A stretch of DNA of 24,793 nt from an uncultured Acidobacteriota bacterium (GTDB taxonomy: Bacteria; Acidobacteriota; Vicinamibacteria; Vicinamibacterales; UBA8438). Positions 1,919 to 24,793 of the stretch are shown here, in pieces. Under the pieces are notes generated by a model. It saw only the letters and a list, made by a program, of their open reading frames with translations. It was not told the DNA's origin and did not search any database. Location: NCBI GenBank assembly GCA_913043225.1, contig CAJWLU010000034.1, forward strand, positions 1 through 24,793, written 5' to 3'. The position numbers were made by a program, and so were the translations under genes. The stretch's first letter is position 1. The number at the start of each line of letters is the position of its first letter.

Positions 1919-3745
1919 TCATGCCTCCGGGTCAGGCGGTTCCGCTACCGGGATGTCGAGGCCGACGGCGCGCATAATAGCGAGGGCGTTGCTCCGCGTG
2001 ACCGGTCCCGGTTTGAGCCGATAGTCGAACCGCATCTCCAGGTTCACTAGTAGGTCATCGAAGTGCACGTTGCTCGCTGCCGGAGCGAATTGGTCACCGA
2101 TCTCGGCTAGTGCCAGGTCATGGGTGGTAACTAGGCCGATGGTGTCGCGCCGTAGGAGCGAGTCGAGCAGTCCGCGGGCGCCCTCTGTTCGGTCGTGCGA
2201 GTTGGTGCCGTGGAGCAGCTCGTCGAATAGGAAGAGAGTTGGCTCCGAACGGGCCTGGGCTACAACCTGCCCGAGGCGCAGCACCTCGGTATAGAACCGA
2301 GAGCGGCCCGCCTGCAGGGAGTCCTCGATCCTGAGCGTTGCGCCGATCGCGAGTGGTGAGACACGGAGGTGTCGGGCGCGGACCGGTGCTCCCATCAGAG
2401 CCATTACCACGCTGACCCCGATGCTGCGGAGGAACGTCGTCTTCCCAGACATGTTCGACCCGCTCACGATCAGAACCCGAGGCGCTGCGCCCAGGCTAAC
2501 GTCGTTGGCCACCGCGGCTGCCGAGGGGAGCAGCGGGTGGGTGAGTGCGGTAGCCTCGTAGTGCGGCACCCCGTCTGTTTCAGCCACCTCTGGAAACGGG
2601 TCGTCCGGGTGCTCGAAGGCGTAGGTCCCTAGCGCGGCCAGTGCTTCCATTTCGCCTAGGTGTCCGAGCCAGCCGGCGACCTGGCCGCCATGTCGGGCGC
2701 GCCAGGCCTCGACCGCATAGGCCAGATGCAGCTGCCAGCACAGCAGCGCCGCCAGCGGTGCGAACAGGATGTTGCGTTGCCAGTCGTGGAGTTCCACGAG
2801 CTTTCGCAGGCTTCGGGCTGCTTCGCCCACATCCCCGTCCGCGGTCTCAAGGCTGTGGGCAAGCGCCTGGAGGCGGGCGGCCTCGTAGCTTTCTGTGCGG
2901 ATTACGGCGCTCACGTCGCCCAGCACGGTCAGCTCCGCCGCCGGAGCGCTCGCGCCTGCCATGATCCGGGTGGTCACTCCGGCCCACCGCCTGGCGAACA
3001 CCCCCAGGGTGAGCAAGGCGGCGATGGGCGCCAGCACCGGCGCGCCTTCGTTCCAGGCAAAGATGGTCGCTGGCACCAGCAGGGAGATACCTACCGCCAA
3101 GAGGCGTGTCCACAGGCCGGAGACCGCTTGGGGCGCCACGGCCCAGGCCTTGAGCGCGGCGGGATGGACTGTCTCTCGAGCCGCCGTACCGGCGGTCGCG
3201 AGCCGTTCGCGGAGAAGCGCGTTCGGCTGGAGCTCGATGGCCGCCTCCTGCCTGAGCCGCACCTCGTCAACCCCAGCCGGGCAGGTGAGCCAGTCGGCCA
3301 GGGTTTGTTCGCCGCCCTGGGTCTGAGCGGTGCAGAGCAGTTGGAAGAGCGAACCGTCACCGAATAGGTCAAGATCTTGGGCGTACAGGTGGTCCGGGTC
3401 GACGAAGTGGTCCCCGCCGGGGCTCTGTCCCGGCCAGCTGTCATCGATTCGGGCGAGTCCCCGCTCGTACCACGACACGGCCCGCCGTACCCGGTCTCGT
3501 GAGAGCAGGACTCGGTCGTGGGCCACCACCAGGCCGACAAACACTGCTGCAGGCGCCACTAGCCACCCCGGCGACAGCCACTCCGGTCCGATGGTGACCC
3601 AGCCCAGGGCCACTCCGCTCAGGAACGTTACCAGCCGTCCGGTGCCTATCCGATCCGCCTGTGCGTCGAGGGCGCGAGCTTCAGCCTGCCGTTCCGCAAG
3701 GCGGTTGTGGTAGAGCGAGGCTGGATCCAAGGGTGCAGAGATCAT
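1919..3745 (-). CDS. Membrane-anchored MutS-related ATPase (C-terminal MutS domain V; no mismatch-recognition domain)
   Basis: Walker A GSNMSGKTT, SLQAGRSRFYTE, Walker B LFLFDELLHGTNS, TTHD, C-terminal FDYRLKPG...SNALAIM; hydrophobic TM segments in the N-terminal half; no GxFYE motif. Confidence 0.9.
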   Translation of the reverse strand: MISAPLDPASLYHNRLAERQAEARALDAQADRIGTGRLVTFLSGVALGWVTIGPEWLSPGWLVAPAAVFVGLVVAHDRVLLSRDRVRRAVSWYERGLARIDDSWPGQSPGGDHFVDPDHLYAQDLDLFGDGSLFQLLCTAQTQGGEQTLADWLTCPAGVDEVRLRQEAAIELQPNALLRERLATAGTAARETVHPAALKAWAVAPQAVSGLWTRLLAVGISLLVPATIFAWNEGAPVLAPIAALLTLGVFARRWAGVTTRIMAGASAPAAELTVLGDVSAVIRTESYEAARLQALAHSLETADGDVGEAARSLRKLVELHDWQRNILFAPLAALLCWQLHLAYAVEAWRARHGGQVAGWLGHLGEMEALAALGTYAFEHPDDPFPEVAETDGVPHYEATALTHPLLPSAAAVANDVSLGAAPRVLIVSGSNMSGKTTFLRSIGVSVVMALMGAPVRARHLRVSPLAIGATLRIEDSLQAGRSRFYTEVLRLGQVVAQARSEPTLFLFDELLHGTNSHDRTEGARGLLDSLLRRDTIGLVTTHDLALAEIGDQFAPAASNVHFDDLLVNLEMRFDYRLKPGPVTRSNALAIMRAVGLDIPVAEPPDPEA

Positions 3746-10675: not shown

Positions 10676-11260
10676 ATGGACGCATTGCGCGATAGTCTGC
10701 TGACCCTCGGTCTCCCCGGGCTGTTTCTGATCGCCATGTTCGATTCGGCCGGGATCCCGCTGCCCGGTGGGGTCGACATCGTCTTGATGCTGCTGGCCTG
10801 GCAGCAGCCGTCGTTCTTTCTCCTGGTGGCGTTCATCGCGTCCGTGGGTTCCACCCTAGGCTGTCTGGTGCTCTACCGGATCGGCCGGACCGGCGGAGAG
10901 GTTGCGGTGCGGCGGCTCGACCCGGAGAAGGTCGAGCGGGTGACCGCCAAGGTTCGCGAAAACGACGTGGCGGCCGTGACGGTGGCGTTGCTCGCGCCGC
11001 CGCCCTTTCCTACCAAGGTGTTCATGTTGGTGGCGGGCCTAGTCGGCATGCCGTGGCCTCGTTTCGTGGCGGCTGTCTTCGTGGCCCGGATGATCCGGTT
11101 CAGTGCTGAAGCGTATCTGGCCGTCCGGCTGGGTGACCGCGCCCTCGAGGCGCTCCAAGAGAACTACCCGCTGGTGGGGGCCGTTCTGCTCGGCGCCGTC
11201 CTGCTCTATGTCGCGATACAGTGGTTCCGCGGACGCAGCGCCCAGGCCGCGATCTCCTGA
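10676..11260 (+). CDS. DedA/VTT-domain (YqaA-like) membrane protein
   Basis: 194 aa, multiple TM segments, DSAGIPLPGGVD, GSTLGCLVLYRIGRTGG, PPPFPTKVF, RMIRF. Confidence 0.88.
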   Translation: MDALRDSLLTLGLPGLFLIAMFDSAGIPLPGGVDIVLMLLAWQQPSFFLLVAFIASVGSTLGCLVLYRIGRTGGEVAVRRLDPEKVERVTAKVRENDVAAVTVALLAPPPFPTKVFMLVAGLVGMPWPRFVAAVFVARMIRFSAEAYLAVRLGDRALEALQENYPLVGAVLLGAVLLYVAIQWFRGRSAQAAIS

Positions 11261-11552
11261 GATAGCGTCCCGCTACGGCTGTCCGTGGTCCTAATCGGTG
11301 GTCGTCGGCAATCATTCCCCTCGGCGACTTGCCGCAGCTGGCGTCGGCAGTGCGTTCCGACCTGGGCGATTCGCGGTCTGTCGCAGCTAGGTCAAAAGCA
11401 TCTGTTTATCCGGCGGCTAAGACCCGCTTGGCGTTTGCCGCCGACGAGCTTAGAAGACGTGACCTCGGCGCCCGGAAAGACGTAAGATCCGGCCACACTC
11501 GCCGCGATCGCGGCGCGCTTCAGCGTCGCGATTCTCCCGAAAGGAACCAGCC

Positions 11553-12272
11553 ATGCGGACCGCACTTTCCATGATTCTTCTGATTGCCGCCGGCTGTTTC
11601 CTGATCGCGTGTGGTCAGGGCGGAACCGGGGGCGCCGGCTTGGGTGGATCTTCGTCCGCGCCGATGTCGGACGGCGTGCCCGAAACCGACGACCAGCGGA
11701 TTCTGAACGCATTGGGGCAGGCGCTGGCCCAGAACGTGATACCGGCCGGACTGACGGCCGACGAGCTCGCCTACGTGCAGCGCGGGCTAAGTGATGCGGT
11801 GCTGGGTGCAGAAGCGTTGGTCGCGCTGAACGAGTTCGGCCCGCAGATCCAGGGCTTCGTGGAGGCCCGGGTCGCCGTCGCCTCCGAGGGCGAGCTCGAG
11901 CTGGCGAATGCCTTTATCGAGGAGCAGGCGGCCATCGCTGGTGCGGTGCGCACCGACTCGGGCATCGTCATCCAGGAGATGACGGCCGGGACCGGCACCA
12001 CCCCCACCGCCGCCGACACTGTCCGGGTCCACTACCACGGCACCCTCCGGGACGGCACCGTGTTCGACAGCTCGGTCGACCGCGGTGAGCCTGCGACCTT
12101 CGGCTTGAGCCAGGTCATTCCCTGCTGGACCGAGGGACTGCAACAGATCGCTGTCGGCGGAAAGAGCAAGCTCATCTGCCCGCCCGACCTCGCCTACGGT
12201 CCCCAGGGCCGTCCCGGCATCCCCGGCAACGCCGCGCTCCTCTTCGAGGTTGAGCTTTTGGCGATCGAGTAG
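11553..12272 (+). CDS. FKBP-type peptidyl-prolyl cis-trans isomerase (FkpA/Mip type), probable lipoprotein
   Basis: VRVHYHGTLRDGTVFDSS, VIPCWTEGLQ, PPDLAYG, IPGNAALLFEVELL; lipobox LIAC; AAAGGA RBS. Confidence 0.95.
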   Translation: MRTALSMILLIAAGCFLIACGQGGTGGAGLGGSSSAPMSDGVPETDDQRILNALGQALAQNVIPAGLTADELAYVQRGLSDAVLGAEALVALNEFGPQIQGFVEARVAVASEGELELANAFIEEQAAIAGAVRTDSGIVIQEMTAGTGTTPTAADTVRVHYHGTLRDGTVFDSSVDRGEPATFGLSQVIPCWTEGLQQIAVGGKSKLICPPDLAYGPQGRPGIPGNAALLFEVELLAIE

Positions 12273-12281
12273 GGTGCCGGT

Positions 12282-15134
12282 CTACCGGTCGTGACTCACC
12301 TCGACCGGTTCACCCAAGCCTAGCTCGGCAATCTGGCTGAGCTGGGTCTCGGCGTCCCCCACCACGACGTAGATCATCTGGTCCTCGTCCAAGTGTGTCG
12401 TAATCGTTTCGCGGAAGTCGGTGAGCGTCATCGAGAGCAGTGTCTCCTGATCCCGCTCGACAAAGTCAGCCGGCTTGCCCAGCCGGCTCATTTGTCGCAG
12501 TAGCCCTAGCTTGGCGCCGAGTGACTCGAATGCGCGAGTGTTGCCCTTGATTACCTGGTTTGTGGTGACAGTTACGTCCGATTCGGTGAACGTGTCGGCG
12601 TAGTTGCGAATCTGGTTTTGTAGCAAGCTCAGCGACTCGAGGGTGACGTTGGCTCTGACGCTCGTTTGTGCCACCCAGGGTGCTATTTCGCGCGTGGTGC
12701 CGATGCTTGACCGTGCTCCGTAGGTATAGCCCTTCTCGATCCGGAGTAGCTGGAACAGCCGTCCGCTCGAGCTGCCGCCGATCCGCTCGTTGGCGAAGTC
12801 CAGTCGGATCCACTCGTCGTCTTCCGCCGACAGCGCCAGCCGGCCAGCCATCAGTACGGATTGCTTGGCGTCTTGCACGTCCACGAAGTAGATGCGACCC
12901 GACTCGGCCGATGTTGGGGTTGGCTGCGGCGGCTGATCAACCGGTTTTGACGCCCAGTCCGTGCTCAGCTCCGCGAGAGCACCCTCTACGTCTTGCCGAT
13001 TCACGGCGCCGGCCACGTGGAAGGTTGCGAGCGACGGCGAGAACACACGTTCGTAGTAATTCTGCAGGTTGGCCAGGGTGATGTTGGCAGTCGTTGCCGG
13101 GGTGCCGGCCGGCGGCGTACCGAATGCGTGGTCGTCGCCATAGAGCAGGCGATAGAAGACGTCGCTGGCGATGGCAGGCGGGCTCGACTCTCGGTCCTTT
13201 AAGCGCGTAGCCAGTTCTCGGGTGAGACGTTCGAATTCATCCTCGTCCCACCGCGGCCTGAGGAGCATCTCGCCGACCAGAGTCATCGTCTGCTCGAACG
13301 TCCGGGCCAGCGTGCTGCCGCTCAGGCGAATTGTTTCCCGACCGGCCGAGATGTTGATCCGCGCGCCCAGCAGATCGATGGCTGCCTCGAGTTCGGCCGG
13401 CGAGCGGCGGGCGGTGCCTTCCTGCAAGAGCGAGGCGAGTAGTCCGGCCACGCCCGTTCTGCCGTCTGGATCCTGCAGTTGGCCTCCGGGGATCGTGAGA
13501 TCGAACTCGACGAGCTCGCTCTCGCGATGCTCGATGCCGTACAGCTCCAGACCGTTGTCGAGCCGACTCTGCCAGACCTCCGGGGCGCTGGCGAGCGGCG
13601 GGTCACCCAGTGGCGGCTCCGACCGGTCCGCCTCGGTTGGCGTGCGGCGGTAGCGCGCTTCTTCACCCTGGCTGACCTCGGCCTCGGCGCCCTGGAGAAT
13701 CTCCTCTTCGACCACGCGGGCCCGTTCGGCGCCCTCGAGCGCCAGCTCCGGGCGACCGCGCGGCACGAAGCTGGTCATGATGCGCGGCCGGTCCTTGATG
13801 TACCGCTGGTACGCCCCCATGATTTCCTCGGCGGTCACCGCTTCAGTCCGGTCCGCGATGGTGGCGATGTGGTTGGGGTCGCCGGCGAACTCGTTCCCTT
13901 CCGCCAGCTCGAACGCCTTGTCGAGCACGCTGCCGATCCGTTCGTGCAGGCTACGTTCGGCCTGCACTTTGACCCGTGCCAGTGCCTCGGCGTCGATGCC
14001 GCCCTGCTCGAATCTGGCGAGGGCCTCGTCGACGGCGACCACGACGCTGTCGAGGTCGGTGTCGCCGCCGGCGCGCACCCTGAACACGAGCTCGCCGGCG
14101 ATCTCGGCCGCACGATGTCCAACCACAACAGCCGGCGCCAGCCGCTGCTCCTCCACGACCACCTGATAGAGCGGCGACTCTCGGCTGTCAGCCAGCAGGC
14201 TCGCCAGTAGGTCTAGCGTGTAGTGGTCCTCGTGAAATTGCTCAACGGTGGGGAAGACCAACTGCAGCTCAGGCAGGGTAGCGAATGTGTCTTCGTACAT
14301 CAGCGACCGCGTGGCCTTGAGATAGACCGGCTGCGGGTAGGGTGCGGTCACCGTGGGACCCTGCCGGATCTCGCTGAACCAGTATTCGACCAGCCGCTTC
14401 GTTTCCCCGATCTCGATGTCTCCGGCAATCACGAGCGTGGCGTTGTTGGCGCCGTAGAGCCGTGTGTAGAACGACTGCACGTCTTCAAGCGTAGCGCTCT
14501 GCAGGTCGTCGAGCGACCCGACCACGGTCCAGTGATACGGATGATTTTCGGGATAGAGTGCTGCCTGTTGGACGGCTCGGGTGTGGCCGTAGGGCGCGTT
14601 GTCGACCCGCTGCCGCTTCTCGTTCTTGACGACCTGTTTCTCACGTTCCAGGGCGGCCTCGGTTACGGTGTTGATCATGAAGCCGAGCCTGTCAGAGTCG
14701 ATCCAGAGGATCTTCTCGAACGCGTCCTTGGGTACCACCTCGTAGTAGATGGTCATGTCCTGGCTGGTACCGCCGTTGCGGGTGCCACCCAGTTCGGGGA
14801 TTAGCTTTCGATTGGCGCCGCGTGGGACGTTCTCCGAGTCGTTGAACGACATGTGCTCGAAAAAGTGCGCAAATCCGGTGCGGCCGAGTCGTTCGCGGCT
14901 CGAACCCACGTGGACGATGGTGGCCACGGCCACGATCGGATCGGAGTGGTCCTCGTGGAGCACCACCTCGAGTCCGTTGTCCAGGGTGTAGCGTTCGTGG
15001 GCCAGCTCGGGAAAGGTGCTGGTCGGCGTAGGCTCGACCGGCGGGGATGGGGTGTCGCAGCCCGTGACCAGTAGCACGGTCAACAGCGTTGGGCAGACGA
15101 GAAAGAACCAGCGTCGGGCATCAGGTCTGAGCAC
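12282..15134 (-). CDS. M16-family (pitrilysin/insulinase) zinc protease, fused two-half type, probable lipoprotein
   Basis: Inverted zinc motif GFAHFFEHM, EKQVVKNEKRQR, second-half RIEKGYTYGA. Start moved to GTG 15134 (GGAG upstream), which gives a signal peptide ending LVTG-C. Confidence 0.92.
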   Translation of the reverse strand: MLRPDARRWFFLVCPTLLTVLLVTGCDTPSPPVEPTPTSTFPELAHERYTLDNGLEVVLHEDHSDPIVAVATIVHVGSSRERLGRTGFAHFFEHMSFNDSENVPRGANRKLIPELGGTRNGGTSQDMTIYYEVVPKDAFEKILWIDSDRLGFMINTVTEAALEREKQVVKNEKRQRVDNAPYGHTRAVQQAALYPENHPYHWTVVGSLDDLQSATLEDVQSFYTRLYGANNATLVIAGDIEIGETKRLVEYWFSEIRQGPTVTAPYPQPVYLKATRSLMYEDTFATLPELQLVFPTVEQFHEDHYTLDLLASLLADSRESPLYQVVVEEQRLAPAVVVGHRAAEIAGELVFRVRAGGDTDLDSVVVAVDEALARFEQGGIDAEALARVKVQAERSLHERIGSVLDKAFELAEGNEFAGDPNHIATIADRTEAVTAEEIMGAYQRYIKDRPRIMTSFVPRGRPELALEGAERARVVEEEILQGAEAEVSQGEEARYRRTPTEADRSEPPLGDPPLASAPEVWQSRLDNGLELYGIEHRESELVEFDLTIPGGQLQDPDGRTGVAGLLASLLQEGTARRSPAELEAAIDLLGARINISAGRETIRLSGSTLARTFEQTMTLVGEMLLRPRWDEDEFERLTRELATRLKDRESSPPAIASDVFYRLLYGDDHAFGTPPAGTPATTANITLANLQNYYERVFSPSLATFHVAGAVNRQDVEGALAELSTDWASKPVDQPPQPTPTSAESGRIYFVDVQDAKQSVLMAGRLALSAEDDEWIRLDFANERIGGSSSGRLFQLLRIEKGYTYGARSSIGTTREIAPWVAQTSVRANVTLESLSLLQNQIRNYADTFTESDVTVTTNQVIKGNTRAFESLGAKLGLLRQMSRLGKPADFVERDQETLLSMTLTDFRETITTHLDEDQMIYVVVGDAETQLSQIAELGLGEPVEVSHDR

Positions 15135-15154
15135 TTGATCTCCAGCCACTGTCT

Positions 15155-15160
15155 TACCAT
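15155..15160 (+). promoter_or_regulatory. Possible -10 element (TACCAT) 6 nt before GTG 15167
   Basis: TANNNT match at leaderless spacing in the 32-bp divergent gap; it overlaps a minus-strand TATGGT. Confidence 0.4.
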
Positions 15161-15166
15161 AGAGAG

Positions 15167-15685
15167 GTGACCTGTCGGGGGATGCTCGTGGTGGCGCTAC
15201 TGCTGGCGACGACCCAGCCGGGGGCGGCCCAGCTTGCGGCTGACCAGCACTGGCCACAGTTCCGTGGCCCAGCCGGTCGTGCGATTGCTGACGGGGCGGA
15301 GCTGCCCGACAGCGAGCAGGTCGCCTGGTTCCAGCCCAGCGGCATGCCCGATGTGCCGTCACCGCTGGTCTATCGCGGGCGTCTCTATTCGATCTTCGAC
15401 AACGGTATCCTCAACGTCTTCGACACGTATACCGGTCAACGGGTCTACCGCAAGCGGGTCGGTGGCGGCGGCAGTGGTTTCTCGGCGTCGCCCTGGGCTG
15501 CCGATGGCAAGGTGTATCTGTTGAGCGAAGAGGGCGACACGTTCGTCATCGCCGCCGGCGACAGCTACGAGGAGCTGGCGGTGAACGGCCTCGACGAGCT
15601 GGCCTTTGCCTCGCCCGCGGTGGCTGACGGAGCGCTCTTCATACGAACCATGACTAAGCTGTATCGAATAGAGGCGATGCCGTGA
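15167..15685 (+). pseudogene. PQQ-like/BamB-type beta-propeller gene; ORF is open but appears internally deleted
   Basis: Signal peptide and the family N-terminus HWPQFRGP...ELPD join directly to family C-terminal blades (VPSPLVYRGRLY, GFSASPWAADGKVY, ASPAVADGALFIRT...LYRI). Only 172 aa, far too short for a full propeller. Confidence 0.7.
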
Positions 15686-16794
15686 CCGTACGTCACGCTT
15701 TGGTCGCGATCGTGCTGATTGGCGCGGCCGCCTGCGGTGGGCCCCCGCCCGAGGTCGTCGTGCTGCGCGCGCCTGACGGCGCCTCACTACCGCAGATGGT
15801 CATCGACGAGGCCGGTGTGCTGCAGCTTATCTACTACACCGGTTCGATGAGCAGCGGAGATCTCTGGCACGTCAGTCGGGCGCCCGAAGACGACGACTGG
15901 TCACCGCCCAGGCGGGTCAACAGTACCCCGCACTCAGTGCATGGTCTGGGTCCCATCGACGGAGGCCAGCTGGCCATCGGTCCGGACGGCCTTCTGCATG
16001 CCACCTGGTTCCACAAGGATCCCAACCGGTTCTTTTACGCCCGTACCGACCACACCGGTATGTTCCAGGAGCAGCAGACGCTCTCCATGCACGACGAGTT
16101 GGGCATCGAGGCGGCTCCGACGGTGGCGGTGGATCATGAGGGCAACGTCTATGTCTTCTGGCACTCCGGAAAGGGAGAGGAAGCCGGCCGCCGGGTGCAC
16201 CTGGCCGTCTCGCGAAACAACGGCGTGTTCTTTGATCTGCCCCGGCCGGTGAGCCCGCCAGAGCATGGCGCGTGCGGCTGCTGTGGCCTCAGCGCCTCGG
16301 TTGATCATGACGGCGTGCTCCGGACCGCGTATCGGGCCGCCGGCGGGAACATCCATCGGAGCATGCGGCTGCTGACCAGCGTCGACCAGGGACGCACTTT
16401 CGAGGACACGCTCATCCAGCCGTGGGAGATCGGCGCTTGCCCGGTGGCCACCACTACGTTCGCGGTCGGAGCCGAGCGGACGATGGTGGCGTGGGAGACC
16501 CAGGGCCAGGTACACGTGGCCGATGTGGCCTCGCTCGGAGAGCCTTTCTCTCCGCCGGGCGAGGGCGCGTTCCGGAGGAAGAACCCGACCGTGGCGACAA
16601 ACGAGGCAGGTGACCTCCTGCTCGCCTGGGGCGACGGTCCCGGTTATCAGTCCGGTGGTGCCTTTCACTGGCAGCTGTTCGACCGCTGGGGCGGCGCCGT
16701 CGGCGGGCCGGCCGGCGGCCACGATCCGATCCCGGCCCGCAGTGTGCCAACCATGGCGAGCTACCCCGACGGTTCGTTCGTAATTGTGTACTAG
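15682..16794 (+). CDS. Asp-box (BNR/sialidase-like) beta-propeller lipoprotein with CGCC and ACP motifs
   Basis: Lipobox AAAC; Asp-box-like VSRNNGVFF and TSVDQGRTF; GACGCCG and WEIGACP; GTGA overlap with the upstream gene. Confidence 0.78.
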   Translation: MTVRHALVAIVLIGAAACGGPPPEVVVLRAPDGASLPQMVIDEAGVLQLIYYTGSMSSGDLWHVSRAPEDDDWSPPRRVNSTPHSVHGLGPIDGGQLAIGPDGLLHATWFHKDPNRFFYARTDHTGMFQEQQTLSMHDELGIEAAPTVAVDHEGNVYVFWHSGKGEEAGRRVHLAVSRNNGVFFDLPRPVSPPEHGACGCCGLSASVDHDGVLRTAYRAAGGNIHRSMRLLTSVDQGRTFEDTLIQPWEIGACPVATTTFAVGAERTMVAWETQGQVHVADVASLGEPFSPPGEGAFRRKNPTVATNEAGDLLLAWGDGPGYQSGGAFHWQLFDRWGGAVGGPAGGHDPIPARSVPTMASYPDGSFVIVY

Positions 16795-17143
16795 AGTTGC
16801 TGTAGGCCGATCCGCAGGGTTAGAGCCCAGCCCTCCAGAACCAAGAGAGAACTCCCAAAACCCGAAGCGCCGGTAGGCGGCCTGCGGCAGCTACGATCGC
16901 CTAGCTTGCCGGCTTTGACCTGGAGACTGCGTCATTCGAAGCGCGCGCCGGGTCGGGGCCGCTGGCGCGCCGAAAGGTGCGTGGGCGAGCGGCCGAGTGA
17001 CGACAGACCTGTCACAAGCCATTCTCCTGGCTCGAGCGCATGCGTGGTGCGAGGCGAGACTGAAAAGTGAAAGGTTTTGTCCCGCGCCGGTGTCCGGGTG
17101 AACTACGCTAGATGGTCCGAGTTTCGGGATCAAAGGAGGTGTT

Positions 17144-18472
17144 GTGGTGGGAGCAACCGTGATCCGTTGGCGGCCGGTGGTCTTCGTCCTCGCGTTGTTG
17201 GTGGCGGTGGGCGTCGTTGGCACCCTGTTCGTCGATGTTGCACCGCAGGCCGTCGAGGCGGAGGCGCGCGATCTCGAGTTCACCACGCCTGAGGATGTCG
17301 GCGTCTCATCCGAGCGCCTGAAGCGGCTCGACGCTGGCATGCAGGCGATGGTGGATGATGGCAAGTTGGCTGGCGTAGCTACCATGCTCGCTCGTCACGG
17401 CAAGGTGGTTTTCACCGACGCGGCCGGTAAGCTCGACATCGCCAAGGATGCGCCGGTCGAGCTCGACTCCATCTTCCGCATCTACTCCATGACCAAGCCG
17501 GTGGTTGGCGTGGCCATGATGATGCTCTACGAAGAGGGTAAGTATCAGCTCAACGACCCGGTCTCGAAGTTCATTCCCGGATTCGCCGACCTGGAGGTTT
17601 ACACGGGTGAGGGTTCGGACGGCATGATGGAGACCGAGCCGCTAGCGCGCGGCCGGCGTATCACCATGCGTGATCTAATGAAGCACACTGCCGGACTTGG
17701 CTACGTGCTGAACCCGCGGCATCCGGTAACCCGGGCATTCCAGCAGACCGCGGTGCTCGATGCAAACGCGTCGCTACAGACGATGGTCGACAAGATCGTT
17801 AAGGTGCCGCTGATTGCCCAGCCGCAGACCACATGGGCTTACAGCTCGTCGGTCGACGTGCAGGGCTACTTGGTCGAGCATCTCTCGGGGCAGCCGCTTG
17901 CCGACTTCCTCCAGGAGCAGATCTTCAGGCCGCTCGGCATGGTGGATACGGCGTTCTACGTGCCCGTGTCCAAGAAGGACCGGGTGGCTTCGATCCATGC
18001 GCCCACCCGCGAGGGTGGACTCCGCCCCACCTACGAAGGTCGTGGGGCGCTCCGCACCGAGCCGCCGGCCGGCCCCTCCGGCGGTGGCGGCCTGTACGGT
18101 ACCGCGCCCGACTACATCCGGTTCGCGCAGATGCTGCTCAACGGCGGCGAGCTCAACGGCGTCCGCCTGTTGTCGCCTCGCTCGATCGAGCTTATGGCCA
18201 GCGATCACCTCACCGAAGAGGAGAAGAGCGGTTACCGTCGGCCCGGCCAGACCTGGGGCCTCAACTTCTCGGTGGTAACCGACGCGGCTGCCTCGGGTGA
18301 AGCTTGGTCAAACGGATCTTTCTACTGGCTGGGGATCGCCGGCACCTGGTTCTGGGTTGACCCCGAGGAGGACCTGGTCTTCGTCGGTATGATCCAGGCG
18401 AACGGACCGGCCATCAACGAGGTGCAGCAGCTTTCGCGCAGCCTCGTCTATCAGGCCGTCGTCGGCGACTAG
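17144..18472 (+). CDS. Serine hydrolase, beta-lactamase class C / esterase family VIII, exported (start 17144 or 17147)
   Basis: FRIYSMTKP (SxxK), HTAGL, WAYS, IFRPLGMVDT, GGGGLYGT, WLGIAGTWFWVDP; AAAGGAGGTG RBS; hydrophobic N-terminus. Confidence 0.92.
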   Translation: MVGATVIRWRPVVFVLALLVAVGVVGTLFVDVAPQAVEAEARDLEFTTPEDVGVSSERLKRLDAGMQAMVDDGKLAGVATMLARHGKVVFTDAAGKLDIAKDAPVELDSIFRIYSMTKPVVGVAMMMLYEEGKYQLNDPVSKFIPGFADLEVYTGEGSDGMMETEPLARGRRITMRDLMKHTAGLGYVLNPRHPVTRAFQQTAVLDANASLQTMVDKIVKVPLIAQPQTTWAYSSSVDVQGYLVEHLSGQPLADFLQEQIFRPLGMVDTAFYVPVSKKDRVASIHAPTREGGLRPTYEGRGALRTEPPAGPSGGGGLYGTAPDYIRFAQMLLNGGELNGVRLLSPRSIELMASDHLTEEEKSGYRRPGQTWGLNFSVVTDAAASGEAWSNGSFYWLGIAGTWFWVDPEEDLVFVGMIQANGPAINEVQQLSRSLVYQAVVGD

Positions 18473-18617: not shown

Positions 18618-19883
18618 GTGTCCCCGTCCTTCACCCGTTTCTCGTTGAGTGTCCAGCCGGAGGGTGCGTTTACCGTGCTGGCTGCCGCGCGGCAGCTTGC
18701 CGCCGCGGGTAAGGACGTCATCGAACTGGAGATCGGCGATAGCCCGTATGCGTCGCCCGAGGGCGCGGTCGAGGCCGGTATCCAGGCCATTCGGGATGGC
18801 CGCACCAGCTATGGCCCCTCGGTCGGGCTGTCCGAGTTCAGGGCGGCGGTGGCTGACTATGTGAACGAGGAGCACGGTTTCTCGGTGGAGGCCGAGCATG
18901 TGATCGCCGGCCCTGGTGCCAAGACGTTTGAACAGCTGTTCTGCGAGGCGTTCCTCGAGGCCGATGACGGTGTGCTCGTGTTCAGCCCCCACTTTCCGAC
19001 CTACGCGGCGAACATCGCGCGTCGAGGGGCGCGGATGGTGCTGTCCAGTTTGCGGGCCGCCGATGCCTTTCGTCCGTCGCTCGACGATGTGCGTCGCTTT
19101 TTGGAGGAGGACGCGCGGCCCAAGGCCATCTTCCTCAACAGTCCGCACAATCCCACCGGAGGCGTCGCTACCGAGGCCGACCTCGCTGGCCTGGCCGACC
19201 TCGTCCGAGGACGGGATGTCGCGGTATTCAGCGACGAGCCCTACGACTGCATGGTCTGGGCGGGACGTCACCACTCGCTGCTGGCCCAGCCCGGCATGCT
19301 CGAGCAGACGGTGGCGGCCTACACCTTCAGCAAGTCGTTTAGCATGAGCGGCTGGCGGCTTGGCTACGCTGTCTCGAGTCTCGAGAACATCGCCGTGCTC
19401 GACCTGCTCACCAACACGGCTCTCTCCTGTGTCCCCCCCTTCACGCAGATTGCGGGCGCGGCGGCGCTCTGGCATGACCGGGCCTACCGAGATGCTCGAA
19501 TACAGGACTTTCAGCGGAAGGTCGAGCTGCTGGTGACTGGCCTCAACGGGGTGGACGGGATCACCTGTCTGATGCCGGGGGGGACTTTCTATGTCTTTCC
19601 TTCGGTGGCAGCTATCTGCAATCGAGTCGGCATCACCTCACACGGCCTGGCGATGTATCTGCTCGAAGGGGCAGACGACCAGGTCGGTGTCGCGTGCCTC
19701 GGGGGCGAATGTTTCGGCGAGGCGGGGGCTGGCTTCCTGCGATTGAGCTGCGCCCAGCCGGATGAGCGTCTGACCGCCGCCGTCTCGTTCATTGCCGAGG
19801 CGTCTACCCGGACACCCCGGATCGAGTCCTACCTCGACGCGTATCCGGAGTTCCGTTCCGCCGAGCTCTACTCGCTCGACTGA
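18618..19883 (+). CDS. PLP-dependent aminotransferase class I/II (aspartate aminotransferase-like)
   Basis: LNSPHNPTGG, SDEPY, PLP lysine motif TFSKSFSMSGWRLGY, GTFYVFP, FLRLS; start moved to GTG 18618 after AAAGGAG. Confidence 0.93.
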   Translation: MSPSFTRFSLSVQPEGAFTVLAAARQLAAAGKDVIELEIGDSPYASPEGAVEAGIQAIRDGRTSYGPSVGLSEFRAAVADYVNEEHGFSVEAEHVIAGPGAKTFEQLFCEAFLEADDGVLVFSPHFPTYAANIARRGARMVLSSLRAADAFRPSLDDVRRFLEEDARPKAIFLNSPHNPTGGVATEADLAGLADLVRGRDVAVFSDEPYDCMVWAGRHHSLLAQPGMLEQTVAAYTFSKSFSMSGWRLGYAVSSLENIAVLDLLTNTALSCVPPFTQIAGAAALWHDRAYRDARIQDFQRKVELLVTGLNGVDGITCLMPGGTFYVFPSVAAICNRVGITSHGLAMYLLEGADDQVGVACLGGECFGEAGAGFLRLSCAQPDERLTAAVSFIAEASTRTPRIESYLDAYPEFRSAELYSLD

Positions 19884-20488
19884 GCGAGCCGCTCCTGCAC
19901 GCTGGCGACCAGCTCCGCGACGGGACGGGTGCCAGAGAGCTGGAGCATGGCCCAGCGTCGGGTCGGCTCGACCCACCGTTCGAACATCGGCTGCGCGTCA
20001 CGTGCGAAACGCTCGCGGACTTCGGTGGCGTCGCGGCCGCGCTCTTCCAGATCGCGCGCAACGCGTCGTGCGAGCGCTGTATCCTCGTGGACGTCCAGGA
20101 ACACTGTCAGATCGAAGATGGCGCGCGTCCTCTCATCATGGAACACCAGCAGTCCCTCGACGATCACCAGGCTCCCTGGGGTCACCAGTCGGGTGCGATC
20201 TGCGCGCGTGTGGTTGGTGTAGTCGTAGACCGGAGTGTGAACGGCAGCGCCGTCGGCCAGCCGCGCGAGGTCTGTCGCGAAGCGGTCCCAGTCGAACGCC
20301 GCGGGGATGTCGAAGTTCCACCGCTGCCGCTCGTTCGGTGTCAGCTCCGAAAGATCGCGATAGTAGGCATCCTGGGGAAGCACGACGCCGCCGCTTGCGT
20401 CGGCCAGGGCGTGGGCCAGGGTGGACTTGCCCGAGCACGAGCCGCCGGCCAGTCCGACCAGACGGGGCCCGCTGCGCGAGGACATCAC
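19868..20488 (-). CDS. udk: Uridine kinase
   Basis: P-loop GLAGGSCSGKST, QDAYYRD, NFDIPAAFD, PVYDYTNHTR, IVEGLL, RRVARDLEERGR, WVEPTRRWA. Confidence 0.9.
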   Translation of the reverse strand: MMSSRSGPRLVGLAGGSCSGKSTLAHALADASGGVVLPQDAYYRDLSELTPNERQRWNFDIPAAFDWDRFATDLARLADGAAVHTPVYDYTNHTRADRTRLVTPGSLVIVEGLLVFHDERTRAIFDLTVFLDVHEDTALARRVARDLEERGRDATEVRERFARDAQPMFERWVEPTRRWAMLQLSGTRPVAELVASVQERLAQSSE

Positions 20489-20850: not shown

Positions 20851-21618
20851 TTAGATCGACTCCAGATGGTCGGCTCGGGTCCAGCCGACCTTGCCGTCCT
20901 CGAGCACGATCTCGGCCCAGTCGTCCGAGCGCCTGTCGATCCGAACCTTCGTGCCTTCGTGGACGGTGAAGATCTGCAAGGCTACATCTTCAGATGGCGC
21001 GCTTTGCACGGTGGCCTCGGCGCTCATTACCACCGCCTTTTCGGCGGCTCCGAACGACAGCTCCCGTACGACCAGGTTGATGCCGAGCAGGAACGTTGTG
21101 GCTGCACCCACCACGGCAACCCGTTTTCCCAAAGCCGCCACAGGCGTCGTGGGTCTGAGGATGGTGACGATCAGCCCCGTCATGGCGGCGAGGTAAGCCA
21201 GCGCCGCGAACCACAGGAGTGCCGGACGGGGGAGGAGGTTGACCCACCAACCGACGATCCCGAACAGCCAGAACTCCGGAAGTGGCGTGACGGCGTCGGT
21301 GGTGAGCGACCGAGCAAGCTCGAGGTTGGCCGCGAGATCTTCGTCAGCGGGCATCAGCCGCCTGGCCCGCTCGTAGTAGAGGATCGCGGGGCCCAGCTCG
21401 CCCAGCTTGAAGTAGGCGTTTCCCACGTTGTAGTAGAGTTCTCCGCCTTCCAGTCCTTGGTCGAGGATCTGGGCGTAGCGGTCGAGTGCGCCCCGGAAGT
21501 CCCCTTCCTGATACCGCTGGTTCCCTTCGTCGAAGAACGCCTCCTGCGCGTCGACCCTCGGTCCAGTCAGGCCGGTGGCCACGACCGCCGCGAGTAACAC
21601 GGTGACTCGTATCCTCAT
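20851..21618 (-). CDS. batE: BatE-like protein: signal peptide, TPR repeats, two TM segments, C-terminal SH3-like domain
   Basis: LYYNVGNAYFKLGELGPAILYYERA, VHEGTKVRI...WAEIVLEDGKVGW; TGATG coupling to batD. Confidence 0.85.
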   Translation of the reverse strand: MRIRVTVLLAAVVATGLTGPRVDAQEAFFDEGNQRYQEGDFRGALDRYAQILDQGLEGGELYYNVGNAYFKLGELGPAILYYERARRLMPADEDLAANLELARSLTTDAVTPLPEFWLFGIVGWWVNLLPRPALLWFAALAYLAAMTGLIVTILRPTTPVAALGKRVAVVGAATTFLLGINLVVRELSFGAAEKAVVMSAEATVQSAPSEDVALQIFTVHEGTKVRIDRRSDDWAEIVLEDGKVGWTRADHLESI

Positions 21619-23420
21619 CAGAGTGCCTCGTCCAGTGCGATCATGGCCTGACCTGCACGGGTCAGGAACTCCTCCATCGCGGCGTGGTCGGGCGAAGTCG
21701 GCGCGAAACGCTGTCGGTCGCAGTCTTCCAGACAGCCGAGGTATCGCTCGACGAGGGAGGGATCGACGCTTCGGCCGTCGAGTCGAGTCCGCACTTCGTC
21801 ACGAAGCATGCCAGCCTCGGCGATGTTTAGCTTGTCGCCGAGAAACCCCTGCAGCGCTCGACCCACCTCGGCGTAGAACTCCCGGTGCTGCTCGGGAGAC
21901 TGGAGCGACTCGGCATGCGAGAGTCGCTGCTTTGCCACCCGCGACGCCCGGCGTCGGCGGGCGTATCCGACATCACCCTGAAGCCGGTCCTCATGCCGCC
22001 TGAACGCCACCGCTCCACCGAGCGCGACCAATGGGAAGAGCGCGACTACCCAGAACCAGGTGCTGCCGAGCAGAGCCCCTCCCACCGGGTGGAATGTCGG
22101 GCTCGCGATCCGGATGAAACGGATATCCTGGCGTTCGAGGTCGATCTCCGTCCGCAGGCGACCCGCGGGGCCCGCCGGGGCCTGAGTGGGATCGCCCGCG
22201 ATCGAGAGAGTGATGACATCGGTGGCCGCCGCCGCATACTGCCCGGTGTCGGGATCAAGATACGACAGCTCCACCTGCGGGAGGGTGACCGTGCCCGGAG
22301 AGCGAGGTACCAGCACGTACTCGAACGTCTTCGACCCACGAATTCCATCTGGCGTCGGATCGATCTGTTCCGTAACTTCGGGGGGATACACCTCGAGCGA
22401 CGACGGGAATGCCAGCTCCAATACTGGCAGCGTCCGGATGTTGCCGGTACCGGTTACCGACAGGCGGTAGGTCAGGGCATCATTGACCTCCGCCGTGGTG
22501 CGGTCGACCGAGGCGGAGACGTCGAGCGCGCCGACCAGGCCTGAGAACGACGAGGGTGGACCCTGTGGTAGGGGGAGGACCTCGATCTCGACTGGCTCCG
22601 ATCCAACGACCACCGGAACTCGGCGGCCGAACAGGCCGCCACCAAAAACCCCGTCGAACGGATCGCCAAAGACGCTCCGGCCACGTTGCTGGACCCGTAT
22701 TTGCGTCTCCACCGTCAGTGGCTCCAGCGTTCTGGTGCCCGCGCCAGTTGGGTACAGTGCCACCCGACGAATGACTGCGCTGGCGTAGGTCACACCGTCA
22801 CGGACCACCTGTTCCGCCTGTCCGGTGGATCCGCCAAGCTCCTCAACCCAGAACCCCCTCGTACTGGGCTGCCGGGTGATGTCATACCCCTCGACGTCGA
22901 CCCTCGTGAAGATCCGATACTCGACGACCACGGCCTGGTTGACATACACCCGGGTCGTATTGGGGGTCGCCGTCAAGAACAGATCCTCAGGCCTAATGCT
23001 TTCATCGGCGGGTCGGCCATTCGTGCTCGGCGGCGGCGCGTTGGAGACTGCAATCGACAAGGGCTCGGTCGCCAGCGATTGGCCCGCCGCTTGAACTTCG
23101 ACGGGGTCGATGTCGAAGGTGCCCTCGGTGGTGGCCTGGTAGCGATACTTGATGGTGAGCGACATCGCCGTCCGGCCATTGGTGATCTGCATCGACGTCG
23201 AAGTACCCGAACCGAGGAAGGCCGCGAACGTCGACAGGTCGGGGACCACCGGATCCTCGTCGAACTGCTGAACTCCGGTGACTTCCACGTTCAGGACGAA
23301 CTGGCGTCCCACCGCCACCTGCGGCTGGCTGAGGTAGGCCCGGACGGACTGCGCCTCGGCTGCGGCGGCCACCGTAAGGAGTCCTAGTGTCCAGACGATC
23401 AGATTGAGCATGCGCCTCAC
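21618..23420 (-). CDS. batD: BatD-family protein
   Basis: 600 aa; STSMQITNG, YVNQAVVVEYRIF, GFWVEEL, EVLPLP, GTGNI, FEYVLVPR, DIRFI, TM segment near the C-terminus, RFAP; GTGA overlap with batC. Confidence 0.9.
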   Translation of the reverse strand: MRRMLNLIVWTLGLLTVAAAAEAQSVRAYLSQPQVAVGRQFVLNVEVTGVQQFDEDPVVPDLSTFAAFLGSGTSTSMQITNGRTAMSLTIKYRYQATTEGTFDIDPVEVQAAGQSLATEPLSIAVSNAPPPSTNGRPADESIRPEDLFLTATPNTTRVYVNQAVVVEYRIFTRVDVEGYDITRQPSTRGFWVEELGGSTGQAEQVVRDGVTYASAVIRRVALYPTGAGTRTLEPLTVETQIRVQQRGRSVFGDPFDGVFGGGLFGRRVPVVVGSEPVEIEVLPLPQGPPSSFSGLVGALDVSASVDRTTAEVNDALTYRLSVTGTGNIRTLPVLELAFPSSLEVYPPEVTEQIDPTPDGIRGSKTFEYVLVPRSPGTVTLPQVELSYLDPDTGQYAAAATDVITLSIAGDPTQAPAGPAGRLRTEIDLERQDIRFIRIASPTFHPVGGALLGSTWFWVVALFPLVALGGAVAFRRHEDRLQGDVGYARRRRASRVAKQRLSHAESLQSPEQHREFYAEVGRALQGFLGDKLNIAEAGMLRDEVRTRLDGRSVDPSLVERYLGCLEDCDRQRFAPTSPDHAAMEEFLTRAGQAMIALDEAL

Positions 23421-24214
23421 CAGGGCCTCCTCACCGGCCTGATGGGTGTCGTGCTGCGCCGCTGCCGCTGTACCTGACTCGGGTCTTCAGCGATGGCATC
23501 GAGGAGACGTTCCGCCTCCTCGCGGCTCAGCTCGCCAAGGGCGTTCTCCGCTGGCGGCGGCTCCGCTTCGTTCTCCGGGGTGGGGTCCTGCTCGTCGGGT
23601 CGGTCCTGAGAGCCGTCCTGTGGCTCGTCCTGCTGGTCCTGTGAGTCTTCCTGGTTTTGGTCTTCGGAGGACGACGCGTCCTGTCGGTCCTGCTGTTCTT
23701 GTTGGTCCTGTTCCGGTTGGTCCTGTTGTTCTTGCTGTTCCTGGTTGTCTCCGTCCTGCGGTTGTTGCTGCTCTTGTTGCTGTAACTGCTCGATCGCCAG
23801 CTCGAGATTGTGCTTCGCGTCCGCGTCGGTCGGATCCCTGCGAAGCGCCTGCTTGTAGGCGTCGAGGGCTGGCTCGAGCTGTTGCTGACGGAACAACGCG
23901 TTACCCAGGTTGTACCAGGCCCGCGCGTCGACGGCCGGGTCGCCGCTCTCGGCGGCCTGGCGATAGGCGTCCATGGCTCGCTCGAGCTCATCGGTCCGGT
24001 AGAGCGCGTTGCCGTTGTTGAAGGGTGCCACCGGCGAGTCCGGAGCCTCCCGGAGCGCTTCGAGATACCGCTCGTGCGCCTCGTCGTAGCGGCCCTCGTC
24101 GTACAGCTGGTTTCCCTCTGCCACCGCGCGCCGTCCCGGTTGTGCCGAAGCACTCAGTGGCCACACTAGCGCCAGCACGAGCCCGGTTGCCGCGACGCGT
24201 ATCGTCCGGCTCAC
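23417..24214 (-). CDS. batC: BatC-like TPR protein; own start GTG 24214, also readable as an in-frame fusion from ATG 24316
   Basis: Signal peptide MSRTIRVAATGLVLALVWPLSASA-Q, TPRs (FNNGNALYR, WYNLGNALF, YKQALRRDPTDADAKHNLELA), Q/E/D-rich linker, terminal LSREEAERLLDAI...RPW; GGAGG 5 nt upstream of the GTG. Confidence 0.87.
   Translation of the reverse strand: MSRTIRVAATGLVLALVWPLSASAQPGRRAVAEGNQLYDEGRYDEAHERYLEALREAPDSPVAPFNNGNALYRTDELERAMDAYRQAAESGDPAVDARAWYNLGNALFRQQQLEPALDAYKQALRRDPTDADAKHNLELAIEQLQQQEQQQPQDGDNQEQQEQQDQPEQDQQEQQDRQDASSSEDQNQEDSQDQQDEPQDGSQDRPDEQDPTPENEAEPPPAENALGELSREEAERLLDAIAEDPSQVQRQRRSTTPIRPVRRPW
23570..23790 (-). repeat. Low-complexity Gln/Glu/Asp-rich coding tract within batC
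   Basis: Encodes QQQEQQQPQDGDNQEQQEQQDQPEQDQQEQQDRQD...; degenerate CAG/CAA/GAC repeats. Confidence 0.7.
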
Positions 24215-24316
24215 GAGAACCTCCCGGTCATCGTCGAGCGCGATGAACCGGAACGGGAGGAGGTGATACCCCCCCTCGCTCGCGTACGCCTCCCGGGCCC
24301 TGAACTTCCGCGTCAT
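24209..24316 (-). pseudogene. hxsB: 5' fragment (~36 codons) of the His-Xaa-Ser system radical SAM maturase HxsB, fused to batC
   Basis: MTRKFRAREAYASEGGYHLLPFRFIALDDDREVLVS matches the characteristic HxsB N-terminus (KF...Y...YxLLPFRF..LD...VL) as I recall it, and overlaps the hxsD stop (ATGA). No CxxxCxxC radical SAM motif follows. Confidence 0.78.
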
Positions 24317-24702
24317 TGCCAGTCCGCAATGTCGAACCCCACGGGGTCGCTCGGGTCACCAGGGGGCTGGGAGTCGAGGTCGTCGAGGGGAGCGAACGCC
24401 TTCGCAACCAGGAGCTCACGGACCGCCTGGGTCTCCCGCGCGACGATGGACCGGGTCTTGAAGTCGATCAGGTCTCTCCCCACCCGTGACCGGAGGGCAT
24501 CGAGCAGACCCTCCGTGAGCGAGCCGTCGAGCCGGGAGAGTATGACCTCGAACCGGTCACCGTCCCGCCCGATCTGGACATCGTAGTCTCCCCCATACCA
24601 GTAGAACGCCTTGAAGACGACGTCCTCCGGGTACATGCAGGCGTCGATTAGCACCGCGACAGAGCCGTCGCCCTGCCTAGTCACCATCGTCTCAGAGTTC
24701 AT
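24313..24702 (-). CDS. hxsD: His-Xaa-Ser system protein HxsD (start ATG 24702 or 24687)
   Basis: ~125-130 aa with ID...YP..VVFKAFYWY and LIDFKTRSIVARETQAVRELLVAKAF, the HxsD family pattern; it lies directly before an hxsB start. Confidence 0.85.
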   Translation of the reverse strand: MNSETMVTRQGDGSVAVLIDACMYPEDVVFKAFYWYGGDYDVQIGRDGDRFEVILSRLDGSLTEGLLDALRSRVGRDLIDFKTRSIVARETQAVRELLVAKAFAPLDDLDSQPPGDPSDPVGFDIADWQ

Positions 24703-24793
24703 CGTCTTCTCGCTGTGAGCGGCGTCGGAGGTAGAGCGCAGTGAGACCGACCGCCACGGCAACTGGAACGGGACCGTCGAGCGGCCCCCCCCC
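24692..24793 (-). CDS. C-terminal 33 aa of an upstream protein ending in a GlyGly-CTERM-like membrane anchor; runs off the right edge
   Basis: Manual translation GGGPLDGPVPVAVAVGLTALYLRRRSQREDDEL*; the TGA at 24692-24694 abuts or overlaps the hxsD start. Confidence 0.6.
   Translation of the reverse strand, partial: GGGPLDGPVPVAVAVGLTALYLRRRSQREDDEL

Follow-up and report, generated by a model that had tools for sequence, protein, structure and literature searches.

Does the end of contig C34 preserve a new gene arrangement, in which an hxs locus runs in frame into a bat operon, or did an assembler join the DNA of two organisms? The window analysed here is the whole of this contig (24,793 nucleotides), part of a species-representative genome (G000; 55 contigs, 3.85-Mb) that marker scores rate as 96.15% complete with 0.56% contamination. 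Its last 4 kb carry, on the minus strand, hxsD, a 299-aa ORF, batD and a batE-like gene, with stop and start codons that overlap. The first-pass annotation had read the 299-aa ORF (23417..24316, minus strand) as a chimera coupled by ATGA to a complete hxsD, and the sequence is as described: the ORF is present and overlaps the hxsD stop by ATGA. Three options had been left for it, namely a rearrangement that gives the hxs locus control of batCDE, a novel association of hxsD with batCDE, or an artefact. Our results favour the last, in the form of an assembly chimera, and do not support the other two. We conclude that the hxsD-hxsB'-batC join is almost certainly an inter-genome misassembly by the assembler and not a new gene arrangement; that it is an artefact, assembler error and library chimera taken together, is marginally likelier still. 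The hxs portion makes up the terminal 564-585 bases of the contig, and the features are as follows.

24703..24793, minus strand: probable foreign tail upstream of hxsD; one frame reads as the end of another gene, with a hydrophobic segment before three Arg, and stops just inside hxsD; identical in the X3 and X4 contigs that match the hxs side
24313..24702, minus strand: hxsD, complete, 129 aa, most likely of another organism; matches TIGR03976, exact protein on 45 contigs, not found in 103 genomes of the family
24209..24316, minus strand: start of hxsB, 36 codons; protein P0001 begins with the same residues, and the start of full-length HxsB P0002 is 80% identical
24209..24229, minus strand: 21-base word common to both sources and probable misjoin point, where the matches of bat-side and hxs-side contigs end
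23417..24214, minus strand: batC-like gene, native, 265 aa, with a signal-peptide-like start (by inspection), TPR repeats and a Gln/Asp-rich tail; exact protein on 6 contigs, TPR and NF047507 matches
21618..23420, minus strand: batD, native, 600 aa; PF13584 above cut-off, and relatives
20851..21618, minus strand: batE-like gene, native, TPR and SH3, 255 aa, from domain content and position
19868..20488, minus strand: uridine kinase after batE; NF004018, just above cut-off

On the hxs side, the identification of HxsD held up in a profile search, in which the protein scored 63 bits against TIGR03976 (cut-off 50) and so belongs to that family. Residues 1-40 of the 299-aa ORF, taken alone, matched nothing in NCBIfam or Pfam. 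When longer relatives of this start were sought, 37 candidates yielded two proteins. P0001 is identical to the ORF over residues 1-36 and different afterwards; it aligns with model positions 1-92 of the HxsB family TIGR03978 (E 2e-15) and breaks off after 122 aa, on a contig of 1.5 kb. P0002 is a full-length HxsB of 485 aa (TIGR03978, 580 bits; cut-off 370) whose start is 80% identical to the same residues. Judged by these alignments, residues 1-36 are the true start of HxsB, as the first-pass annotation had proposed for the first ~36 aa. What is present of this radical SAM protein is 36 codons, a stub that lacks the radical-SAM cysteine motif. The remainder of hxsB and hxsC, which might have been expected elsewhere in the assembly, were not found there: profile searches of the 96%-complete source genome gave no match above cut-off for the rest of HxsB, a best score of 31.5 bits for HxsC (TIGR03977; cut-off 267.9) and no match for the effector HxsA (TIGR03979). 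Among the other genomes of the same family, 0 of 103 carry hxsD, while the exact HxsD protein is recorded on 45 contigs, the longest of 81 kb. The hxsD gene is most likely from another organism than the bat genes. The frame upstream of it (24692-24793, minus strand) encodes a Pro/Val-rich hydrophobic stretch, three arginines and a short acidic tail at its end, which we take to resemble a C-terminal membrane anchor; this frame may belong to the donor's hxsA or to some unrelated gene.

The donor was searched for and not found. An exact 26-base pattern across the junction had 0 matches in the metagenome_contigs collection. None of 369 candidate stretches there held a relative of HxsD, and genome_contigs yielded, among 365 candidates, a single 50%-identical locus in a Longimicrobiaceae MAG, with the proviso for both collections that very close genomes may be missing. 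The 15 other HxsD relatives reached 60% identity at most, and the 564-base tail gave only matches of 26-57 bases, in 13 of 400 genomes of the phylum. The 45 contigs with the exact HxsD, together with a 30.4-kb contig in run X4, indicate that a marine organism carries this hxs locus. The nearest named relative found, the Longimicrobiaceae locus (L020:2798-8325), lies outside Pseudomonadota and has the rarer order hxsA-hxsD-hxsB-hxsC; its hxsB appears to be in pieces, and a DDE transposase (PF13701) is inserted there on the opposite strand.

On the bat side, residues 35-299 of the ORF form a complete BatC-like TPR protein of 265 aa. Its match to NF047507 (91.7 bits) lies under the cut-off of 175 of that Leptospira-specific model, and BatC and BatE are named here from domain content and position, without a passed family cut-off. 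BatD passes the cut-off of PF13584. A TPR BatC, a BatD and a TPR and SH3 BatE thus follow one another in the order of a bat operon, in agreement with the earlier description of an in-frame complete BatC followed by tightly coupled batD and batE; batC and batD overlap by GTGA. The genes that would precede them lie at the start of contig C10, where the minus strand carries moxR (PF07726, 219 bits), a DUF58 gene (PF01882, 281 bits), a BatD-like ORF, batA and batB; the last two matched Leptospira-specific models below cut-off, and two contigs of other runs bridge C10 to the window. We detected BatD in nine of 40 relatives, at 53-79% identity. In all nine loci examined, batB directly precedes batC, the batB tail is alike, and the gene after batB is 48-61% identical to the BatC-like protein of the window; none has an HxsB start at the batB-batC junction. 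Not included in this comparison is L017, a second batD of genome G004, which is more distant and lies at the edge of a contig. Synteny in relatives, which had been suggested as a check, therefore sides with batB as the neighbour of batC. Records of the 265-aa BatC in unfused form come from 6 contigs, the longest of 478,980 bases; those of the fused 299-aa form come from 1 contig only, of 24,793 bases, which is the length of the window.

Contigs assembled from other samples map the join. Parts of 23400-24793 occur in 19 public runs, and contigs from four of the 19 (X1-X4; six records) were aligned to 22800-24793, bearing in mind that contigs drop rare variants. None of the six records crosses 24209-24229. 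The X1 and X2 contigs match the bat side without mismatch up to 24229 and then diverge, into a loose end that reads as the tail of BatB. Those of X3 and X4 agree with the hxs side at every base between 24209 and the end of the contig. Below 24209 they differ, and hand translation of this loose end yields what comes after residue 36 in P0001. Each side thus continues into different, ordinary sequence in independent assemblies, which is the mark of an assembly chimera. The absence of bat-side cover in X3 and X4, and of hxs-side cover in X1 and X2, reflects holes in the contig sets and is not evidence on its own; the argument uses the loose ends and the bridges. Across the 19 runs, the best share of the region's words was 0.57, which fits the bat side alone, and the next was 0.40, which fits the hxs side alone.

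The two sides overlap in exactly 21 bases, 24209-24229. The first-pass annotation had placed the junction at 24209-24220; it is better described as this overlap, which is part of both genes, than as a point. In the frame of HxsB and BatC this word reads DREVLVS, and in another frame TGRFS followed by a stop. In the hxs source it forms HxsB codons 30-36, and in the bat source it comprises the last batB codons, the stop, a GGGAGG ribosome site and the GTG start of batC; this site lies 5 bases before the GTG at 24214, where the 265-aa BatC begins. DREVLVS also occurs in P0002, and the same-genus genome G001 shares 19 of the 21 bases where its batB ends and its batC begins, indicating that the word is native to both genes. 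The source genome holds one copy of it.

Two of these runs also contain the batB-batC join that had been named beforehand as the sign of an artefact. A contig of X1 (23,055 bases) matches C10:556-6000 at record positions 10846-16290 and window positions 22800-24229 at 16335-17764. A second, from X2 (2,869 bases), matches window positions 23006-24229 at 1-1224 and, further along at 1269-2869, C10:556-2156. In either contig 44 bases separate C10 from the window, with 0 mismatches; the records on C10:1-6000 and on the window agree in length and depth and were taken as the same. An overlap of 16 between the two 30-base loose ends again gives 44 bases. By record, X1 and X2 are different samples from different studies. 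These bridges show that batB and batC are neighbours in the sampled population and that the assembly lacks 44 bases of the batB tail. The true upstream neighbour of the window batC is batB on C10, 44 bases away. A blastn comparison of the C10 start with the window gave no useful overlap.

The other side of this gap is also chimeric. A batB ending at a break elsewhere in the assembly had been anticipated, and we found it on C10 (L018): below position 556, batB continues in frame into a fragment of a sulfite-reductase hemoprotein (CysI/Sir; 1-555), which matches positions 352-521 of the NF010029 model and extends the false BatB-CysI frame to 508 codons. The source genome has no other copy of this fragment. 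At 57.7% GC, the fragment falls in the lowest 1% (1st percentile) of a Markov model trained on the genome. The hxs tail, at 66.1% GC against 65.0% for the genome, sits at the 44th percentile, and composition was dropped as a sign of its foreign origin, the tail being host-like. The two tails are similar in length, 555 bases on C10 and 564 on C34. In the source genome, 17 contig-end pairs overlap by exactly 55 bases; neither foreign tail end is among them. Ten other 560-base contig ends (including C31 start, C36 end, C2 start, C47 end and C5 end) score below the C10 tail in the Markov model; some may be further foreign tails, and others rRNA, tRNA or islands.

These features suggest how the join could have arisen. 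A short-read assembler would have stepped from the host batB/batC boundary into another organism's hxsB through the common 21-base word. The usual smallest k is 21; SPAdes uses k values of 21, 33 and 55 by default, and 55-base overlaps between contig ends are its pattern. From the 17 exact 55-base overlaps we infer a smallest assembler word of k=21 here as well. Under a uniform model, chance alone would give a 3.85-Mb genome about 2,500-3,000 sites with a 21-mer in common with a 1.4-1.7-Gb metagenome, and longer k values would normally undo such links. Coverage of the 44 bases was probably thin, leaving a dead end on either side; the assembler would have continued C34 into the foreign hxs piece and C10 into the foreign sulfite-reductase fragment. 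That the fusion stays in frame is a one-in-three coincidence: the 21-base word has the same reading frame in HxsB as in BatC. The real genome would then lack an HXS system, and its bat genes would form the usual operon, moxR-DUF58-x-batA-batB-batC-batD-batE.

It is very improbable that a real event, either recombination at the 21-base microhomology or a foreign island, put batCDE behind an HXS defence promoter and away from batAB; if true, the locus would capture operons in the course of being shuffled between two marine bacteria that are not related. An island replacing the 44 bases between batB and batC would have the sulfite-reductase fragment and hxsD-hxsB' as its two ends and a middle that was left unassembled. 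Both foreign tails do point into the gap in compatible orientation, and interspecies movement of HXS systems has been reported (PMC13128918), but the tails look like those of two donors, 8 points of GC apart (57.7% against 66.1%). Moreover, X4 carries the hxs side on its 30.4-kb contig at a depth of 13.8 and has no cover on C10:1-600, and the 19.6 kb upstream of hxsD in that contig appear to be free of a near-identical sulfite-reductase fragment. Genes are cut mid-way at both ends, no target duplication is seen, and the tail ends are missing from the 55-base overlap pairs, all of which makes an island extremely improbable.

We see an equally slim chance that recombination at the microhomology fused hxsB to batC in one lineage and brought batCDE behind the hxs promoter. 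The in-frame join and the intact ribosome site and start of batC would suit such an event; against it, the fused form occurs on 1 contig only, both sides occur together in no indexed run, the batB end on C10 would need a second, unrelated event, and the HxsB stub has no catalytic motif in a genome where hxsA and hxsC were not found. A physical chimera from library preparation or whole-genome amplification would likewise yield a join at a short common word in a single assembly, and the similar lengths of the two tails (555 and 564 bases) are in its favour. Next to no probability falls to it, given an overlap of exactly 21 bases, the smallest k in common use, and 55-base overlaps that fit multi-k de Bruijn assembly. 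Misassembly between genomes thus accounts best for the join.

Under the misassembly reading, the locus has no biological import, both halves being ordinary. HXS is described as a four-gene anti-phage system, HxsA/B/C/D, in which all four genes are needed for defence, the order is D-B-C-A in 99.6% of systems and 99.7% of systems are in Pseudomonadota (PMC13128918). The locus shares with it an hxsD directly before an hxsB start, in the usual D-B order; it differs in consisting of hxsD and 36 hxsB codons only, most likely another organism's, and does not qualify as a complete system. An operon with MoxR and DUF58 is known for the bat genes, as for batABCDE of Bacteroides (PMC3557215); natural fusions among them are known, such as batB-batC in L. 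biflexa. The same ordinary order is seen here, as in the batB-batE stretch of the nine relatives, with moxR, DUF58, the BatD-like ORF, batA and batB on C10 and batC, batD and batE in the window, except that the operon is divided between two contigs and 44 bases are missing. No bat-hxs gene fusion turned up in the literature, in searches that were not aimed at this gene pair.

Interspecies chimeric contigs have been reported in 141 of 687 near-complete MAGs assembled with metaSPAdes and in 444 of 640 assembled with MEGAHIT (bioRxiv 10.64898/2026.10.15.759294). As far as that preprint describes them, the present case, foreign sequence joined within a contig whose MAG scores well on markers, does not differ in kind; here it produced an in-frame fusion ORF, which is now in protein collections (P0004). 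The 299-aa fusion protein, already public, and the BatB-sulfite-reductase fusion of C10 would both be false gene products, in a genome that represents its species and shows 0.56% contamination by markers. C10 and C34 need to be trimmed and joined, and an in-frame fusion that lies no more than about 600 bases from the end of a contig should be compared with other assemblies before it is read biologically. At the opposite end of the window, a succinate-semialdehyde-dehydrogenase-like gene (named by inspection) is cut at the window start (1-934) and continues on the start of contig C29 via an exact 55-base overlap.
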